Positions 24,869 to 32,986 of a stretch of DNA of 64,000 nucleotides are shown here, in pieces. This DNA is from Staphylococcus phage vB_SscM-1. Within the stretch, counting starts at the first letter, position 1. Each line of letters starts with the position of its first letter. The notes beneath the pieces were generated by a model that was not told the DNA's origin, ran no database searches, and worked only from the letters and a program-made list of their open reading frames with translations. The DNA lies in sequence record NC_047767.1; one strand, 5' to 3'. A program made the translations under genes and the position numbers.

Positions 24869-26221
24869 ATGACTTTGATTACGCAAATTAAGAAAAGAGA
24901 TGGGTCTATTGTAGAATATGACCTTAATAAAGTAACTAATGCTATCTTAAAAGCTAACTCAGAAACAAATGAGTACTTAGAGGATAGCATTGATATTCTA
25001 GTAGATGATGTAGATAGCTTATTAGAAGAAAAAGAGGAAGTACTTACAGTTGAGTGTGTACAGGATATGGTAGAAAAGGTACTACTAGGCAGTGAGTTTA
25101 AAGAGACAGCTAAAGAGTACATCTTATATAGAGATAAAAGAGATAGAGAAAGACGTAGAGATATCTTTAAAGCAAGAAAAGAGTTAAAACCATATGAGTA
25201 TCCGGAGTTATTAGAATACATTAGAGCTATTCAAAATAGTTATTGGGTTCACACAGAGTTTAACTACACAAGTGATATTCAAGATTACATGCAGAATGTT
25301 AAACCTCATGAGCGTACAGCTATTAAAAATGCAATGTTAGCTATTGCACAAGTAGAAGTATCAGTTAAGACATTCTGGGGAGACTTATATCACCGTATGC
25401 CTAAATGGGAAACAGGAGCAGTAGGAGCTACATTCTCAGAGTCAGAAGTACGTCATGCAGATGCATACTCTCACTTAATAGAGTTACTAGGACTTAATGA
25501 TGAGTTCAAGAACATTGATAATATTCCAGCATTAAAAGAGCGTGTAGATGAATTATCAATGCATATAAAACTAAGTAAGAGTGAAGAGGATAAAGACTAC
25601 GTATTATCTGTATTATTATTCTCATTATTTATTGAGCACGTATCATTATTTAGTCAATTCTTAATCATGATGAGTTTTAACAAACATAAAAACTTATTTA
25701 GAGGATTATCAAACGCAATCGAAGCTACAAGTAAAGAGGAACAGATTCATGGTCTATTTGGTATTGAGCTTATTAATATCATAAGAGAAGAGCACCCTGA
25801 GTGGTTCGATGAAGAAATGGAGAAAGCAGTTTATGAAGCTTGTAAACATTCTCTTGAAGCAGAAATAAAAGTTATTGACTGGCTTTATGAAGATGGAGAA
25901 TTAGAATTCTTACCTAAAAAGGTAGTACAAGAGTTTATTAAGAACAGACTTAATAATTCTTTAGAGGCAGTAGGATACGAGAAGTTATTTGAAATTGATG
26001 AAGAACTTATCGAAGAAACAGCATGGTTCGATGACGAAGTAATCAGTACAAAATTAACAGACTTCTTGTCTAAACGTTCAGTTAACTATACTAAGTTTAC
26101 AAACTCAGTAACAGAAGATACATTATTCTCTTCAACATCAGAATTTGAAAACTCAGAAAAAGAAATCAGTAAAGATAAAGTAAACGAGATTTTACGCTTA
26201 CGTATGCTAACAAGAGGATAA
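24869..26221 (+). CDS. nrdB: Ribonucleotide reductase small subunit (R2, ferritin-like) with an N-terminal ATP-cone domain.
   Basis: Residues 1-95 give an ATP-cone (KKRDGSIVEYDLNKVTNAI ... AKEYILYRDKR). The rest is R2 (SYWVHTEFNYTSDIQDY, PHERTAI, SEVRHADAYSHL metal ligands). Confidence 0.75.
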   Translation: MTLITQIKKRDGSIVEYDLNKVTNAILKANSETNEYLEDSIDILVDDVDSLLEEKEEVLTVECVQDMVEKVLLGSEFKETAKEYILYRDKRDRERRRDIFKARKELKPYEYPELLEYIRAIQNSYWVHTEFNYTSDIQDYMQNVKPHERTAIKNAMLAIAQVEVSVKTFWGDLYHRMPKWETGAVGATFSESEVRHADAYSHLIELLGLNDEFKNIDNIPALKERVDELSMHIKLSKSEEDKDYVLSVLLFSLFIEHVSLFSQFLIMMSFNKHKNLFRGLSNAIEATSKEEQIHGLFGIELINIIREEHPEWFDEEMEKAVYEACKHSLEAEIKVIDWLYEDGELEFLPKKVVQEFIKNRLNNSLEAVGYEKLFEIDEELIEETAWFDDEVISTKLTDFLSKRSVNYTKFTNSVTEDTLFSSTSEFENSEKEISKDKVNEILRLRMLTRG

Positions 26222-26238
26222 CATAGGAGGAAATTATA

Positions 26239-27921
26239 TTGGAACAGTTTGAATGGTTAAATACAGATTCAAGAGTATTCTTGGAGAGAGGATACTTAAG
26301 TGAGGGTGAAACACCTGAGCAACGTATTAGAGATATAGCAGATACAGCAGAGGAGATTTTAGGAATCGAAGGATTCTCTGATAAATTTTATTACTACATG
26401 GGTAGAGGTTACTACTCATTATCTAGTCCTGTATGGTCTAACTTCGGTAAAGATAGAGGACTAAGTATTAGTTGTTTTGGTTCATACACAGGAGACTCTA
26501 TACCTTCTATTTTAGGTACAGCAAGTGAAGTAGGGGTTATGAGTAAATTTGGAGGAGGAACAAGCGGTTACTTTGGTAAAGTAAGACCTAGAGGTTCTGA
26601 TATTACTAATAATGGTAAGACAAGCGGTTCTGTACACTTCATGAAGTTATTTGAACAAATGACAGATACTATCTCTCAAGGTAATACACGTAGAGGTAGA
26701 TTTAGTCCTTACTTACCTATCGACCACCCAGATATTGAAGAATTCTTAGAAATTGGTACAGAAGGTAACCCTATTCAAAACATGACACATGCAGTAACTG
26801 TTACAGATGATTGGTTACAAGATATGGTTAACGGAGATTTAGAGAAACGTAAAATATGGGCTAAGGTTCTTACACGTAGAACTCAATTAGGATTCCCTTA
26901 CATCATGTTCAGTGATAACGCAAACAATAATACAGTAGACGTATATAAAGATAAAGGGATGAAGATTAATAACTCAAACTTATGTTCTGAAATATTCCTA
27001 CCTAATAATGAAGAAGAATCATTTGTATGTTGTTTATCTTCAATGAATTTAGTACACTATGAAGAGTGGAAAGACACAGATGCAGTTGAAGTATTAACTT
27101 ACTTCCTTGATGCAGTAATGTCTGAGTTCATTTCAGACTTAGAGAAAATGAGAGACTCAGAAGATATTGAGAAGAGAGAATCATTTAGATTAATGGAAAG
27201 AGCTTATAACTTCTCTAAACGCCACCGTGCATTAGGATTAGGAGTACTTGGATGGCACTCTTATTTACAATCTAAAATGATACCTTTTGAAAGTGTAGAA
27301 GCTAGTCGTCTTAACACACAAATATTCTCATTCATCAAGAAGAAAGCATACAAAGCAAGTAAAGAACTAGCAGAATTATTCGGTGAACCAGAATTACTAC
27401 AAGGTTATGGTAGAAGAAATAGTACACTACTAGCATTAGCTCCTACTACTTCAAGTTCATTTATCTTAGGTCAAGTATCTAAGTCTATTGAACCATTCAT
27501 GAGTAACTATTATGTAGTAGACACAGCTAAAGTTAAGAAAACAATGATTAACCCTTACCTTAAGGAACTACTTAAAGAAAAAGGTAAAGATACTAAAGAA
27601 GTACTAGAAAGTATTAGAGACTATGATGGTTCAGTACAACACTTAGACTTCTTAAATCAAAGAGAAAAAGATGTATTTAAAACATATGGTGAAATTAACC
27701 AGTATAACATTTTAGACCAAGCAGGAAGTAGACAGTATTACATTGACCAAGGACAATCAATTAATATTATGGTTAATCCTAAGCATGTAACAGCAGAAGA
27801 ACTTAATGAGCTTTACCTCTTTGCATGGGCTAACGGTATTAAATCTTTATATTACCAACACGGTACTAACTCAGCTCAACAGTTTAACTTATCTAAATTA
27901 TGTATCAACTGTGAAGCTTAA
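26239..27921 (+). CDS. nrdA: Ribonucleotide reductase large subunit (R1 catalytic core), 560 aa. It lacks the N-terminal ATP-cone/helical region.
   Basis: TTG start 8 nt after AGGAGG. Active-site NSNLCSEIFLP, SISCFGS, FVCCLSSMNL, C-terminal KSLYYQH and CINC. Confidence 0.8.
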   Translation: MEQFEWLNTDSRVFLERGYLSEGETPEQRIRDIADTAEEILGIEGFSDKFYYYMGRGYYSLSSPVWSNFGKDRGLSISCFGSYTGDSIPSILGTASEVGVMSKFGGGTSGYFGKVRPRGSDITNNGKTSGSVHFMKLFEQMTDTISQGNTRRGRFSPYLPIDHPDIEEFLEIGTEGNPIQNMTHAVTVTDDWLQDMVNGDLEKRKIWAKVLTRRTQLGFPYIMFSDNANNNTVDVYKDKGMKINNSNLCSEIFLPNNEEESFVCCLSSMNLVHYEEWKDTDAVEVLTYFLDAVMSEFISDLEKMRDSEDIEKRESFRLMERAYNFSKRHRALGLGVLGWHSYLQSKMIPFESVEASRLNTQIFSFIKKKAYKASKELAELFGEPELLQGYGRRNSTLLALAPTTSSSFILGQVSKSIEPFMSNYYVVDTAKVKKTMINPYLKELLKEKGKDTKEVLESIRDYDGSVQHLDFLNQREKDVFKTYGEINQYNILDQAGSRQYYIDQGQSINIMVNPKHVTAEELNELYLFAWANGIKSLYYQHGTNSAQQFNLSKLCINCEA

Positions 27922-27950
27922 TCCCTTTAAAGAAAAGAGGAAACTATATT

Positions 27951-28268
27951 ATGGATAGAGAAGAAGGTTTAAGGTTACTTAATAATACAAGTAAAGTATT
28001 TGAAGGTAAGGAAGACTTTTTGTATGTTACAGATGTTTACGATGCATCAAAGATACTATATGGTAAAGATGATAAGAGTGTAGACTCTAATACAGTTATG
28101 GCTCAAGTAGACTTTGTTTATAAGAGTGAATACTACATCTTACAGTATAATGCAGGTAGACAAGCTACAAAGCTTATTATGGCAAATGAAAATGGAACAG
28201 TCGATAGAACTGTAAACATTAATGAGTTTAAAGATATTATAAAATCAATTCAAAAGGATGGTAAATAA
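27951..28268 (+). CDS. Hypothetical protein, 105 aa.
   Basis: RBS AAGAGGAAA. Confidence 0.4.
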   Translation: MDREEGLRLLNNTSKVFEGKEDFLYVTDVYDASKILYGKDDKSVDSNTVMAQVDFVYKSEYYILQYNAGRQATKLIMANENGTVDRTVNINEFKDIIKSIQKDGK

Positions 28269-28271
28269 GAT

Positions 28272-28583
28272 ATGAAGGAAGTTACATCATTAGGTAATTT
28301 AAGTGCTACAATTAAGGAAAAGAAGGATGCCATTGTTATCATGGTACAAGACAATTGTGCAAAAAGTGAAATTATTAAGAACACAATTCCTTTATTAGAA
28401 GAAGACATTGAAAAGCCTATTCTATTACTAGACTTAGATGCAAAAGACGTAAATAGAGAAAAAGCAGAGGAGCTTTTCGGTTCTGAAACACCTGCTTTAA
28501 TAGGTTATAAAGATGGAGAAAGAAAAGATGTATACGCAGGTAACATCACTCCTACACAATTAGTTAAATTAGATAATTTGTAA
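28272..28583 (+). CDS. Hypothetical protein, 103 aa.
   Basis: Coupled to the upstream gene. Confidence 0.4.
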   Translation: MKEVTSLGNLSATIKEKKDAIVIMVQDNCAKSEIIKNTIPLLEEDIEKPILLLDLDAKDVNREKAEELFGSETPALIGYKDGERKDVYAGNITPTQLVKLDNL

Positions 28584-29394: not shown

Positions 29395-29698
29395 AATATC
29401 AGCTAACAGAAAAGACATTGCAAGAAAAATATCGGAGTCTACAGGTTATTATATGAAAGATATAGAAGAGATACTGGATGCCGAAGCAGAAGCTATAGTG
29501 GAATTAATAGAAGAGGGTTATACTAAGGTTAAGAGCCATAAACTTATGCAGATAGAAGTAGTAGAGAGAGATAGCAAGAAAGCATGGAATGGACTTAAAA
29601 AAGAATACTATACATTACCTAGTAAAAAGGTATTAAAACTAAAGACTCTTAAGCAACTAGAACAAGCAGAAGAGAACATTAATAGAGTAGATGATTAA
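29387..29698 (+). CDS. HU/IHF-family (TF1-like) DNA-binding protein.
   Basis: The sequence aligns with bacterial HU, including its beta-arm region (KKAWNGLKKEYYTLPSKKVLKLKT). GTG start at 29387 (an earlier GTG at 29378 is also possible). Confidence 0.55.
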   Translation: MDKISANRKDIARKISESTGYYMKDIEEILDAEAEAIVELIEEGYTKVKSHKLMQIEVVERDSKKAWNGLKKEYYTLPSKKVLKLKTLKQLEQAEENINRVDD

Positions 29699-29716
29699 AT
29701 TCATCTACTTTTTTAT
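29686..29716 (+). terminator. Rho-independent terminator whose T-run leads into the next -35.
   Basis: AGTAGATGA-TTAAAT-TCATCTACT hairpin plus TTTTTT. Confidence 0.65.
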
Positions 29717-29745
29717 TTGACAAAGTATAAATAGTATGATATAAT
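29717..29745 (+). promoter_or_regulatory. Sigma-A promoter TTGACA, 17 bp, TATAAT upstream of the DNA polymerase.
   Basis: -35 at 29717-29722 and -10 at 29740-29745. Confidence 0.6.
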
Positions 29746-29773
29746 GTTATTAACATTGAAAGGAGAGAGATGT

Positions 29774-32700
29774 ATGAAAGTATTAGTACTAATGGATTTC
29801 ATTAGAGAGGAACACTACTCTGTAAGTAAAGAGGGTAAACCTACATTTAATCTTTTTAATACAACTAATGGTAAAACATTAAAGAGTATTATGGAGAAGA
29901 CAACAGGACTTAAAAGAACAGTACAACAAAAAGATTATGATATTGCATATGTTTATAATCAAATACCTACACCTATCAGAAATGATTATGGTAAGATTAT
30001 CAAGTATCAGGATGTTAAACAATCAGAGGTTAAACCTTTTTATCCTGCACTAACTAAACAGATAGTAGATAAGGGGTATGACATCATAGTACCGACTGGT
30101 AAGCTAGGAGTTAAGTTCTTACTTAATGTATCAAGCATAGGAACTGTTAGAGGGGTTCCAGAAAAGGTTACATTAGAGAATGAAGGTAAGGAGCATTCTG
30201 TATGGGTATTACCAACTTACAGCATAGAATATACTAATGTGAATAAGAATGCTGAGAGACAGGTATTAGCAGACTTTAAAACACTAGGTAAGTTTGTACA
30301 AGAAGGTGAAAAGGTATTTAAACCTTCTGAGGTTTCTTACGAGCTAGTTACAGACATAGAAAGAGTAAGAGAAATATTTAATAAAGAAATTAAAAATGAT
30401 AATGAAGACGGGTATGACATAACAGCATGGGATTTAGAGACTAACTCTTTACAACCTGATAGAGAAGGTAGTAAACCTTTAGTACTTTCTATGTCCTGGT
30501 CTAATGGTCAAGGTGTTACAATACCTATCTACAAAGCTGATTTCCAATGGGCTAATGGTCAAGAGGATATCAATGAGATACTTAGCTTACTAAAAGAATG
30601 GGTAGCAAGTAATGAAGATATTAAAGTACTGCACAATGCTACGTACGATATTAACTTCTTAATGACTACTTTAGGATTTAAGAACTTTGAAAACAACAGA
30701 GATACAAAAGTAGGTTGGTATCTAGCAGTAACTCAAGAGCAAGCAGAGTCTTTACGTTTATCAGATTTAGCTTACGAAGTAACAGACCAAGGAGGATATG
30801 ATAAACCTCTAGAAGAGTACAAAGTATGGTTTGTCAATAAGCTATTAAGATTTTTCTCAGATAAAATTAAAGATATTCAGAAAGAAAATAAGAAGGTTGC
30901 TAAAAAAGAGTTTGATGTTAAGGCACCTGAATATAAAGAGTGGTTAGAAAATAAGTTATCAACAACTAGTGTTACTCTAGATGAAACAGATAAGAAGTTC
31001 GGAGTAACAGAGCACCAAAAGAAATTCCAAATTTTAGGATTACTACCTGAGGTAGTTAACTTAAATATGACAATGGATGAAGACTTTAAAGAAGTAGCTA
31101 ACCAATCACCTGAGTATATGAGCTTATCAGATAACGCTAAAAGATATACATTAGATACAGCTATCAGATTAATTAATACTCATGGAAGTAATACAGAAGT
31201 AGTAAATGAGGTTGATGGAAGTAAATTCAACTATGACTGGATTCCATTAGAATTAATGCATCCTTATGCTAGTGGAGATACTGATGTGTGTAGACGTATA
31301 TACTGTGAAGTAGTAGACAGATTAAAAGAGCAGAAGAGAGATAAGGCTTTTGACTTATTAAATAGAGACTACCCACGACTTATTAGAACATTAGCTAGAA
31401 TTCAATCTAACGGATTACATTGTGACCTAGATTATATGTACAGTAATGATACGAGCTATGAAATTGAGCTAGAAAATACTGTAAATAAAATGAGGGAGCA
31501 CTGGTCTGTAAAAGAGTTTGAAGAATATCAATATGGGTTGTATGAAGCAGGGTTAGAAGAGTTTAGTAAACCTAAGTCTGAGAGAGACCCTGAGATTGAA
31601 TCATATAGAACTAAGTTTAAAGATAATAAATGGATGTTCTCACCTGCATCAGGAGTACACAAAGGTAAAGTAGTATATGATATCTTAGGCGTTAACGTAC
31701 CTTATGGTAAAGAGACTGTTAAAGATAAACCTTTTAATAATGGAACTAAGGAACAAGACCTAACATGGGAAGACTACAAAACAGATGCTAGTACACTTAA
31801 GCAAGCTCTTGCTAATGTAGAAAGAGAAGAAGATAAAGAGATAATTGAATTACTATTATACTATGCTTCTTTAAATACTAAGAGAAACTCTTTTACTAAG
31901 AAATTACCTAATCGAGTAAACAAGAATACAAGTAAACTACACGGAGGGTTTAACTCTACAGGTACAGCAAGTGGTCGTTTGAGTAGTAGTAACCCTAACC
32001 TTCAACAGCTACCTTCTCACACATCAGATGTAAATAAGTTTGACTATAAACACCCTGTTAAACGTTCATTTACATCAAGATTTGATAACGGTGTAATACT
32101 ACAAGCCGATTACTCAGCCTTAGAGATGCGTATTACAGCATTATATACAGATGATAGAGAAATGCTAGAGATGTTCTTAACAGGTCAAGATATCCATAAA
32201 AATACAGCAAGTATTATGTATAATAAAAAAATGGAAGATGTTACAGCAGAAGAAAGACAAGCTAGTAAAGCAGTAGCATTCGGATTAATTTATGGTGAAT
32301 CTCCATTCTCCTTTGCAGGTAAGAATGGTATGGCAGTAGAGGAAGCAGAAGAGATATTTGAGAAGTTCTATTCAAATAAACCTGCTATTAAGAGTTCTAT
32401 TGATAAAACACATGAGTTTGTACAAAAGCATGGCTATGTAGAAACTATGAATGGTCATAGAAGAAACATCCTTTCAGCTACATCAAATGATAAGAAAATT
32501 AAGAATGAGGGCTTAAGACAGTCCTTTAATACAATCATTCAAGGTACAGGTGGATACCTTACTAATATGGCTATTACATTCATAGATGACTTTATTGAGA
32601 AGTACAACATGAAGTCTAAACTAGTTGCAACTGTGCACGATAGTATTGTAGTAGACACACACCCAGATGAAGTATATACTATGGGTAAGGTAGTAGTACA

Positions 32701-32986
32701 TGTAATGGAAAATCTCCCTTATGACTTCTTGAAGATTGATATTAATGGTGAGAGAAGACAGTACCCTATTGATGCTGATATGGAAATTGGATTAAACTAC
32801 AATGACCTTGTAGAATTTAATGAAGAAGAAATGAAAACCTTTAATAGCTTTAAGGGGTATATCCAATATAAGATGGCTCTTCAAACTGTTAAGGACTACT
32901 TTGAGTCAGATAAGTTAACAGAAGAACAAATGAACTATGGTATTAGTAAGATTGAAGAAAAGAAAAATAAATATCAACAAATTTAG
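29774..32986 (+). CDS. Family-A DNA polymerase with a 3'-5' exonuclease domain, intron-less.
   Basis: Exo I WDLETNSL, Exo II YDINFL and Exo III YASGDTD. Pol motif A ADYSALEMRI, motif B RQASKAVAFGLIYG and motif C TVHDSIVVD. AAAGGAGAGAG RBS before the ATG at 29774. Confidence 0.9.
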   Translation: MKVLVLMDFIREEHYSVSKEGKPTFNLFNTTNGKTLKSIMEKTTGLKRTVQQKDYDIAYVYNQIPTPIRNDYGKIIKYQDVKQSEVKPFYPALTKQIVDKGYDIIVPTGKLGVKFLLNVSSIGTVRGVPEKVTLENEGKEHSVWVLPTYSIEYTNVNKNAERQVLADFKTLGKFVQEGEKVFKPSEVSYELVTDIERVREIFNKEIKNDNEDGYDITAWDLETNSLQPDREGSKPLVLSMSWSNGQGVTIPIYKADFQWANGQEDINEILSLLKEWVASNEDIKVLHNATYDINFLMTTLGFKNFENNRDTKVGWYLAVTQEQAESLRLSDLAYEVTDQGGYDKPLEEYKVWFVNKLLRFFSDKIKDIQKENKKVAKKEFDVKAPEYKEWLENKLSTTSVTLDETDKKFGVTEHQKKFQILGLLPEVVNLNMTMDEDFKEVANQSPEYMSLSDNAKRYTLDTAIRLINTHGSNTEVVNEVDGSKFNYDWIPLELMHPYASGDTDVCRRIYCEVVDRLKEQKRDKAFDLLNRDYPRLIRTLARIQSNGLHCDLDYMYSNDTSYEIELENTVNKMREHWSVKEFEEYQYGLYEAGLEEFSKPKSERDPEIESYRTKFKDNKWMFSPASGVHKGKVVYDILGVNVPYGKETVKDKPFNNGTKEQDLTWEDYKTDASTLKQALANVEREEDKEIIELLLYYASLNTKRNSFTKKLPNRVNKNTSKLHGGFNSTGTASGRLSSSNPNLQQLPSHTSDVNKFDYKHPVKRSFTSRFDNGVILQADYSALEMRITALYTDDREMLEMFLTGQDIHKNTASIMYNKKMEDVTAEERQASKAVAFGLIYGESPFSFAGKNGMAVEEAEEIFEKFYSNKPAIKSSIDKTHEFVQKHGYVETMNGHRRNILSATSNDKKIKNEGLRQSFNTIIQGTGGYLTNMAITFIDDFIEKYNMKSKLVATVHDSIVVDTHPDEVYTMGKVVVHVMENLPYDFLKIDINGERRQYPIDADMEIGLNYNDLVEFNEEEMKTFNSFKGYIQYKMALQTVKDYFESDKLTEEQMNYGISKIEEKKNKYQQI

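Follow-up and report, generated by a model that had tools for sequence, protein, structure and literature searches.

Aerobic ribonucleotide reductases (RNRs) of class Id (NrdAi/NrdBi) are known from the biochemistry of Leeuwenhoekiella blandensis, Facklamia ignava and Flavobacterium johnsoniae. The published criteria for the class are a Tyr/Glu pairing, a Lys, a Thr and an α subunit without an ATP-cone (PMC8463856; PMC6754362). The NrdAi proteins are the shortest class I α subunits, with a median length of 564 aa (PMC9669993), and never carry an ATP-cone (PMC5794259, PMC8463856). NrdI is absent near all of the more than 260 class Id β genes (PMC8463856). The β gene precedes the α gene in 70 of the 104 operons of the NrdAi clade, and ATP-cones borne by β occur almost exclusively with this order (PMC9669993). 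Viruses were already listed in the 2018 eLife paper (PMC5794259). Here we describe a trx–nrdB–nrdA locus in a stretch of 64,000 nucleotides (the window) from Staphylococcus phage vB_SscM-1 (NC_047767.1), a Sciuriunavirus (Herelleviridae, Twortvirinae) to which phage ZCSS1 is 99.4% identical over the RNR region. The locus very probably encodes a class Id aerobic RNR that is regulated by an ATP-cone borne on the β subunit, NrdB.

Subunits and subclass of the phage reductase

A preliminary description of the window, made from the letters alone, had reported an R2 open reading frame (ORF) of 450 aa headed by an ATP-cone and an R1 ORF of 560 aa with a TTG start. Both ORFs were found as described (24869–26221 and 26239–27921), and the motifs quoted for them were all present: SEVRHADAYSHL in NrdB, and NSNLCSEI, a YY pair (Y538/Y539) and a C-terminal CINC (C555/C558) in NrdA. 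The N-terminus of NrdB gave a significant match to the ATP-cone model PF03477 (E=4.8e-18; score 65.9 bits, cutoff 25.8; model positions 2–88 of 88), and the remainder of the protein matched Ribonuc_red_sm, which confirms it as R2. Residues 4–420 aligned to the whole chain of PDB 5OLK, the ATP-cone NrdB of L. blandensis, with 59.5% identity over 417 residues (E=7.4e-160). Further PDB matches were the class Id β structures 6SF4/6SF5, 8DQ3 and 6CWO–6CWQ. The AlphaFold2 (AF2) model of NrdB had a mean predicted local distance difference test score (pLDDT) of 74.9, the cone (pLDDT 80–90) and the core being confident. When this model was searched with Foldseek, 5OLK ranked first, and the TM-scores to class Id β structures were 0.87–0.91. 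The Leeuwenhoekiella enzyme named as a precedent in the preliminary description is thus the best match by sequence and by fold.

The six metal ligands E163, E193, H196, E256, E291, and H294 correspond to E170, E200, H203, E263, E298, and H301 of L. blandensis NrdB; E193 and H196 lie within SEVRHADAYSHL. The first ligand is Glu and not Asp, and the second-sphere Tyr (Y200, L. blandensis Y207) is retained. The class Id signature residues K167, W170, Y200, and T287 correspond to K174, W177, Y207, and T294 of L. blandensis, and K167 and T287 also to K71 and T191 of F. johnsoniae. K167 sits in the distorted first helix of the core, three residues before W170, and T287 is equivalent to the Thr that forms a hydrogen bond with the Tyr. 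The ligands and the signature residues were invariant or nearly so among 15 homologues (alignment A1). In the cone, K9, R10, K21, and R95 (L. blandensis Arg102) were invariant in the alignment. Among the seven cone–cone interface residues of L. blandensis, five are identical in the phage (D66, E69, K82, I85, R88), and the other two, M80 and I93, are conservatively replaced by L73 and L86. The ratio of nonsynonymous to synonymous substitution rates (dN/dS) of the cone was 0.07–0.12, which indicates strong purifying selection, close to that on the catalytic core (about 0.04). The canonical C-terminal segment, predicted to be disordered by AF2, holds the radical-transfer Tyr Y407 ('NYTK') and the α-docking end '...EDTLF'; the conserved Tyr in this part of class Id β has been described (PMC8463856).

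NrdA matched the R1 barrel domain of Pfam (E=8.6e-96), and its residues 12–74 weakly matched the C-terminal portion of the all-alpha domain of R1 (Ribonuc_red_lgN), slightly below the cutoff (E=8.9e-6). No Pfam match to an ATP-cone was found over the 560 aa. The protein passed the curated cutoff of NCBIfam TIGR02510 ('NrdE-prime'; score 752 bits, cutoff 602) over model positions 13–560 of 560. Residues 3–559 aligned to PDB 6DQX (E=1.4e-221) and 6DQW (E=1e-187), solved α chains of ~575 aa that are labelled just ribonucleoside-diphosphate reductase alpha chain and whose attribution to class Id (Actinobacillus ureae, F. johnsoniae), made via citations in PMC9669993 and PMC8463856, is unconfirmed. 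The key residues are C79, N247, C249, and E251 (the latter three within NSNLCSEI), C264, the YY pair and C555-x-x-C558. The preliminary description had placed the first conserved Cys about 40 aa from the start and regarded R1 as truncated by some 200 N-terminal residues. This Cys is in fact C79. The alignment offsets gave an N-terminus ~146 residues shorter than that of E. coli NrdA and ~98 shorter than that of NrdE, and part of the all-alpha N-domain is kept. NrdAi proteins normally have about this length of 560 aa; judged by its length and by its match to TIGR02510, the phage R1 is not truncated but full length for its own family.

The models for the other aerobic classes scored far below their cutoffs, both those of class Ib (TIGR04170, 137 against 750; TIGR04171, 56.8 against 355) and those of class Ia (NF006576, 28.5 against 346; NF006578, 81.6 against 813). 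As the preliminary description had stated, no NrdI was found in the 64-kb window; the best tblastn hit with a genuine Kayvirus NrdI had E=0.4 over 19 aa. A second RNR was not found in the window either. The phage order is β then α, nrdB ending at 26221 and nrdA starting at 26239. The R2-then-R1 order and the absence of NrdI are the norm for class Id and no oddity. The domain architecture, subclass membership, signature residues and NrdI absence are established directly.

By homology, the enzyme would be manganese-dependent, NrdI-independent and regulated through β. The metal identity, the activation by superoxide, the dATP-driven tetramerisation and the coupling to thioredoxin proposed below are modelled on the biochemistry of the L. 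blandensis, F. ignava, and F. johnsoniae enzymes. NrdB would bind two Mn(II), and superoxide would oxidise the pair, with no part for NrdI, to a stable Mn2(IV,III) cofactor. This cofactor itself, and not a tyrosyl radical, would start radical transfer. Thr287 would hold the second-sphere Tyr200 away from the metals, and Lys167 would line the access channel. The radical would travel by way of Tyr407 to Y538/Y539 and C249 of NrdA. The active-site disulfide of NrdA would be re-reduced via C555/C558, which would in turn be reduced by the adjacent phage thioredoxin. Reduction of the C-terminal Cys pair of NrdA by a redoxin has been reported (PMC6187632), and the upstream trx product is likely the dedicated reductant of this pair. 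A thioredoxin gene accompanies the RNR module also in the related loci L002, L169, L003/L004, and L008. With ATP in the cone, the NrdB dimer would enter the active α2β2 complex; with dATP, two per cone, the cones would pair and give an inactive β4 tetramer.

Distribution and exchange of the module

Viral and cellular collections were surveyed with tblastn, and whether a cone was present was read from where the tblastn alignments started and from Pfam. About 58 records of Staphylococcus phages contained the full-length NrdB (62 records covered at least 80% of the query). The carriers include Silviavirus Romulus, Remus, SA11, and Stau2 (79% identity) and Sciuriunavirus. Romulus, Remus, SA11, and Stau2 are phage-therapy candidates, so that the enzyme is easy to obtain and study. 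In IMG/VR, at least 554 contigs encoded an NrdBi relative. Cellular genomes gave at least 558 stretches with one, the carriers including Flavobacteriaceae, Erysipelothrix, Bacillaceae, and Patescibacteria. In both collections, every one of the 80 best matches aligned from query residues 1–9 and therefore includes the cone. The cone-on-β architecture is neither rare nor an assembly artefact, and the view that it is unusual in Twort-like phages did not hold. A conserved anchor gene was found in 341 Staphylococcus phage records; compared with the records that carry NrdB, this places the class Id module in roughly 1 in 6 staphylococcal Herelleviridae.

In the Kayvirus Staph1N, the gene order is primase, two ORFs, resolvase, nrdI, nrdE, nrdF, ORF112, and tio, with polA later. 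The order in the window is primase, two ORFs, PDDEXK resolvase, trx, nrdB, nrdA, an ORF112 homologue, and a Tio homologue, again with polA later, and trx sits where Kayvirus has nrdI. Because the Kayvirus nrdI–nrdE–nrdF genes occupy exactly the slot of trx–nrdB–nrdA, replacement of the RNR module within the same genomic slot is supported. The preliminary description had suggested that the nrdIEF genes of relatives and the present module were different acquisitions, which agrees with this result. The Twort-like staphylococcal phages have two non-homologous solutions for one slot, either nrdIEF or trx plus a class Id enzyme with the cone on β.

The exchange also extends to parts of the module. 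The metagenomic phage contig L004 has exactly the synteny of the window, and the nucleotide identity was 90–98% in the flanks and in the first ~230 nt of nrdB. When the two were compared in segments of 150 nt, the first nrdB segment showed 98% identity and the next 81%. Within ~25100–27950 of the window the identity was 63–82%, mostly 67–78%, and it returned to ~91% at 27951–28268. In L003/L004, this cassette has an nrdB core without the C-terminal tail described below (420-aa NrdB) and an nrdA of 567 aa. The two nrdB alleles fell into different NrdBi subclades in a neighbour-joining (NJ) tree without bootstraps. The pattern of identity is that of a cassette swap that broke nrdB near the boundary of cone and core and ended close to the 3' end of nrdA: the cone remained with the backbone, and the β core and α were exchanged as one for those of another NrdBi subclade. 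This suggests that cone-based regulation is portable between the β cores of two NrdBi subclades and that docking is not. Modules, and even parts of modules, are exchanged among Twort-like staphylococcal phages, and this exchange continues.

Several related loci carry insertions. A 309-aa ORF is inserted between nrdB and nrdA in L003. The nrdA gene is uninterrupted in the window; in relatives it is cut into 2–3 pieces by inserts with HNH, GIY-YIG, or NUMOD homing endonucleases (L002, 7350–10412; L005, 7370–10713; L168, 2997–5091; L169, 9350–11396), which resemble interruptions of the group I intron or intein type. In the close NrdB homologues P0031, P0071, and P0073 (750–776 aa) and P0035 (568 aa), an insert of ~320 aa that weakly resembles LAGLIDADG proteins divides the ferritin domain. 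These split homologues of related phages probably contain inteins.

The C-terminal tail of NrdB

The phage NrdB runs 30 residues past F420, where the solved class Id β subunits end. The native NrdB of L. blandensis ends in '...SDDLF', as read from the cloning primer (PMC5794259), and the F. ignava NrdB is without a C-terminal extension (PMC6187632). In a survey of ~165 loci, the end '[DN]DLF-stop' was nearly universal. The long tail, of 25–30 aa, was limited to one clade (the window, L002, L005/L006, L007, L008, L009, L087, and L168–L170), which was monophyletic in the NJ tree. It was absent from all of the 111 other unique NrdB termini, among which a single unrelated extension of 11 aa was seen (L099). 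All of the 10 tailed genomic contexts examined were phage or prophage-like. The closest 'bacterial' homologue of NrdB is that of Nosocomiicoccus ampullae (L002; CP079109, 1130917–1144251). Its surroundings contain polA, several DNA methylases, Dam, DUF3310, dUTPase, nucleoside deoxyribosyltransferase, and homing endonucleases, and this copy probably belongs to a prophage or to phage DNA included in the assembly.

The tail carries the conserved motif K..VN..LR[LM][RK]M[LI]. AF2 predicted, with low confidence, a short helix at 435–449, which is preceded by a disordered linker. The proportion of nonsynonymous differences (pN) in the tail was 0.22–0.28 against a proportion of synonymous differences (pS) of 0.55–0.81, which gives a dN/dS of about 0.2–0.3, compared with about 0.04 for the core.

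To this tail correspond changes in both subunits in a set of 117 unique α/β pairs, 6 tailed and 111 tail-less. In β, the second D of 'DDLF' is Thr in all six tailed proteins and Asp in all 111 tail-less ones, and the residue following 'NYxK' is Phe/Tyr in 6/6 and Arg/Lys in 111/111, respectively. In α, position 520 is Glu in every tailed pair and Lys/Arg in every tail-less pair. Position 542 is Gly in 6/6 tailed pairs and Ser in 109 of the 111 others, and position 551 is Leu in 6/6 and Arg/Gln/Lys in 109/111. At position 516, all six tailed proteins have a one-residue insertion (H/N), and the tail-less proteins vary (gap in 56, Met in 50; the alignment is ambiguous here). This single residue is the sole insertion in NrdA that is specific to the tail clade. 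A large NrdA indel specific to the clade was considered and rejected; the 12-residue insertion relative to 6DQX occurs also in tail-less enzymes including that of L. blandensis. With a gap-free offset of +205, NrdA 516–524 map approximately to yeast R1 721–729, which is subsite 1 of the pocket for the β C-terminal peptide (PMC3483043).

Since the tail covaries with the predicted docking helix of α, and the nrdB core and nrdA swap jointly, we infer that the tail may be part of a remodelled α–β docking interface. Our proposal is that a phage-restricted class Id sub-lineage has remodelled the docking of β on α, '...K-R...DDLF' giving way to '...K-F...DTLF' plus a basic amphipathic helix (K..VN..LRLRML) 25–30 aa further on, with the accompanying E520, H516, 542, and 551 changes in α. 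This proposal is tentative and falls short of even confidence. It would rest on a single evolutionary event, on the approximate mapping to yeast R1 and on a helix that AF2 predicts with low confidence, all of which weigh against it.

The tail might instead be a tolerated read-through remnant, or a docking peptide for another phage or host protein such as a component of a complex for deoxynucleoside triphosphate (dNTP) synthesis or of the replisome. Its faster evolution relative to the core and the weakly predicted helix would fit with this, as would the restriction of the examined tailed contexts to phages and prophages. The class Ib NrdF of Kayvirus, which is also extended, by 13 aa, hints at a habit of the phage lineage that is independent of the type of α. 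However, the motif is kept across proteins that are just ~62–65% identical, the covariation of the tail with four α positions (516, 520, 542, 551) and with the neighbouring canonical β motif is absolute, and the nrdB core and nrdA swap as a single unit. When all window proteins were compared, no separate tail-like docking motif was found in any other of them. We regard the remnant or foreign-partner explanation as possible but less likely than not.

If docking has been remodelled as proposed, it would be a previously undescribed mode of α–β recognition in class I RNRs. The phage subunits could then be an exclusive pair, or the tail could tether the enzyme elsewhere. The tail and the covarying α helix are the sole new lead for RNR enzymology from this locus and a natural test case for α–β specificity.

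In the NrdF of the Kayvirus Staph1N (L167, 10161–11210), the 13 aa, LDSKEYSTAKEFL, lie beyond '...DEDFSF', where many solved NrdF chains end. Extensions of the β C-terminus therefore occur in both RNR types of the Twort-like phages. In Flavobacteriaceae (L. blandensis, L126; L108–L110, L116, L131, L137, L140, and others), the nrdA ATG follows the nrdB stop in frame after 1–2 codons, and NrdA begins with a conserved additional stretch of ~40 aa (...Q[ED]L[VL][ND]ARK..L...), which is missing from phage and Bacillota NrdA. In L. blandensis and relatives, tblastn alignments had continued across the nrdB stop codon. The idea that the tail is this flavobacterial N-terminal extension relocated to NrdB was rejected: the hidden Markov model scores of the real sequences did not stand out from those of 2,000 shuffles, and hhalign gave a probability of 0.14%.

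Regulation, gene neighbourhood and described enzymes

Phage T4 RNR has an ATP-cone but is not known to be switched off by dATP. Conservation of the cone is therefore no guarantee of an off switch, and this weighs against regulation of the phage class Id enzyme as proposed above. The same is true of the modest identity of its cone to that of L. blandensis (45%), of the two conservative differences among the seven interface residues, of the fact that Arg102 is the sole nucleotide-contact residue explicitly named in the passages on the L. blandensis cone, and of the absence of biochemical data on any phage class Id enzyme from the literature searched. The cone might thus bind nucleotides without a dATP off switch, being T4-like, activating only or vestigial, which would allow overproduction of dNTPs in infection. 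Phages profit from unrestrained dNTP synthesis, viral RNRs often lose regulation (Burnim et al., PMC9669993), and the replacements of M80 and I93 by Leu would be compatible with such a loss. We nevertheless consider it unlikely, since the constraint on the cone is near that of the catalytic core, since K9, R10, K21, and R95 are unchanged together with five of the seven interface residues, and since the phage backbone kept the cone when the remaining enzyme was replaced. This retention argues that the cone is selected in its own right. Taken with the conserved cone and interface residues and the low dN/dS, it supports the transfer of the L. blandensis type of regulation to the phage enzyme.

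The GenBank records of ZCSS1 (MW430345), UHP46 (PP995776), SscM-1, and others carry the label 'ribonucleotide reductase of class Ia (aerobic)', that is, a di-iron enzyme with a tyrosyl radical. This is highly improbable. The first ligand is Glu163 and not Asp, Lys167 and Thr287 are present, and α has 560 aa and no cone, compared with ~760 aa and an ATP-cone in class Ia; the best matches were class Id structures and TIGR02510, with the class Ia models far under their cutoffs. The label in public phage annotation would accordingly change from class Ia to class Id. That the 450-aa ORF is an artefactual frameshift or assembly fusion of an ATP-cone ORF to nrdB, a concern raised in the preliminary description, has next to no probability, since identical or near-identical full-length NrdB occurs in dozens of independently sequenced phages and in metagenomes, NrdB is collinear with the crystal structure 5OLK across the cone–core linker, and NrdBi relatives are encoded in over 1,100 stretches of viral or cellular DNA, the best 80 per collection all with the cone.

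The features of the locus are listed in Table 1. An AGGAGG Shine–Dalgarno sequence precedes both nrdB and nrdA. For nrdA, the spacing to TTG 26239 is 8 nt. For nrdB, the spacing is 2 nt to ATG 24869 and 8 nt to TTG 24875. The 448-aa form is annotated in ZCSS1 and SscM-1, and the homologues all begin at that TTG. Because the spacing, the annotations and the homologue starts agree, TTG 24875 is more likely the true start of nrdB than ATG 24869, and both RNR genes would therefore have TTG starts.

Table 1. Positions of the RNR genes, their domains and neighbouring features in the window.
Feature	Position	Strand	Evidence or remark
trx, canonical thioredoxin, 104 aa, W28-C29-G-S-C32	24545-24859	+	Pfam Thioredoxin E=9.3e-28; TIGR01068 115.4 bits vs cutoff 96.8
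nrdB, NrdBi radical-generating subunit with N-terminal ATP-cone	24869-26221 (450 aa); probable start 24875 (448 aa)	+	
ATP-cone domain, NrdB residues 6-93, putative allosteric on/off sensor	24884-25147	+	PF03477
Ferritin-like dimetal core, NrdB residues 104-377	25178-25999	+	PF00268 E=1.5e-55
Canonical disordered C-terminal segment, NrdB residues 396-420	26054-26128	+	Alignment to last residues of 5OLK, 6SF4, 6CWO
Clade-specific C-terminal tail, NrdB residues 421-450, SSTSEFENSEKEISKDKVNEILRLRMLTRG	26129-26218	+	Linker and short predicted amphipathic helix
nrdA, NrdAi catalytic subunit, 560 aa, TTG start, no ATP-cone	26239-27921	+	TIGR02510; PDB 6DQX/6DQW alignment
NrdA residues 516-524 (HVTAEELNE), helix preceding YY pair, predicted β-tail docking segment	27784-27810	+	
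Backbone ORF, 105 aa, Kayvirus ORF112 homologue, outside swapped cassette	27951-28268	+	tblastn 30% identity, E=1.3e-12
Tio-like thioredoxin-fold protein, 103 aa, degenerate C29-A-K-S32	28272-28583	+	52% identity to Staph1N Tio, E=1.8e-30
Exchangeable cassette, nrdB core and nrdA, approximate breakpoints	25100-27950	+	Nucleotide identity vs contig L004

The preliminary description had the pair flanked by thioredoxin-like genes. This is correct for trx, which lies immediately upstream; the downstream thioredoxin-fold gene is separated from nrdA by one ORF. The product of the latter, the Tio-like protein, matched Pfam Thioredoxin weakly and below the cutoff (E=9.4e-4). Its motif was compared among the Tio loci L167 (11541–11861), L007 (9198–9515), and L008 (8082–8390): it is CGKC in Kayvirus, CAKC in Silviavirus SA11, and the monothiol CAKS in Sciuriunavirus (the window, ZCSS1, L003/L004). 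The Sciuriunavirus phages with CAKS carry the canonical WCGSC thioredoxin upstream of nrdB, and no separate trx was detected within the RNR locus examined in SA11. The coincidence of a monothiol Tio with a canonical thioredoxin upstream of nrdB suggests that the reductant role may have moved to the new trx and that Tio has lost its resolving Cys.

A scan of the window found no + strand terminator between 24062 and 29684, and a single transcription unit may therefore cover trx, nrdB, nrdA, and the four genes that follow. The promoter scan gave 32 promoter-like sites against a shuffle expectation of 27.2 +/- 5.7, which is not above chance, and no operon promoter was assigned. A strong terminator-like hairpin with an 11-pair stem followed by a T-run lies at 29684–29711, and directly after it, ahead of polA, is a perfect sigma-70 consensus promoter at 29717–29745 (TTGACA, 17 nt, TATAAT, with an upstream TG). 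The window polA (DNA polymerase I, 29744–32986) is a single uninterrupted ORF of 1080 aa; polA is split by endonuclease-bearing inserts in L004 (13028–17263) and in Kayvirus (L167, 13055 onward). An IS605 OrfB/TnpB-like gene lies just upstream of polA in L003 (13888–15021).

Among described systems, the L. blandensis enzyme (5OLK, 6SF4/6SF5; PMC5794259, PMC6754362) has the same order of ATP-cone, linker, ferritin core, and disordered C-terminus as the phage NrdB. The two also share the metal ligands, the equivalents of Lys174, Trp177, Tyr207, Thr294, and Arg102, most cone-interface residues, a cone-less α (the core is 559 aa from the FDWL motif in L. blandensis), the β-then-α order, and the absence of NrdI. 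The phage NrdB differs in its 30 aa beyond the native '...SDDLF' end and in having K-F...DTLF in place of K-R...DDLF. The phage NrdA lacks the flavobacterial N-extension of ~45 aa, and its E520 replaces a Lys of the L. blandensis protein. The module is, moreover, phage-borne and has an adjoining thioredoxin gene. The Grx–ATP-cone–NrdB of F. ignava (PMC6187632) is likewise a Bacillota-associated class Id enzyme with a β cone, nrdA just downstream, and a linked redoxin. There, however, a glutaredoxin domain is fused to NrdB, whereas the phage has a separate trx gene, and F. ignava has no tail, with 327 residues after the cone compared with ~351 in the phage.

The class Id enzymes of F. johnsoniae, A. 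ureae, and Aggregatibacter (6CWO–6CWQ, 8DQ3) share the minimal α and the β metal site (Glu/Tyr, Lys, Thr) with the phage enzyme, but their β subunits are without ATP-cone and tail. Relative to 6DQX, the class Id attribution of which is unconfirmed, the phage α has 12 additional residues at ~300–313, an insertion common to most NrdAi. The class Ib nrdI–nrdE–nrdF module of Kayvirus (phages K, G1, and Staph1N) has the same slot, between the PDDEXK resolvase and ORF112/Tio, the same role in the replication module, and also a C-terminal extension of β, of 13 aa. In contrast to the class Id module of the window, it needs NrdI, its NrdE of 704 aa has no functional ATP-cone and is only 23% identical to the window NrdA, and its Tio has CGKC where that of the window has CAKS.

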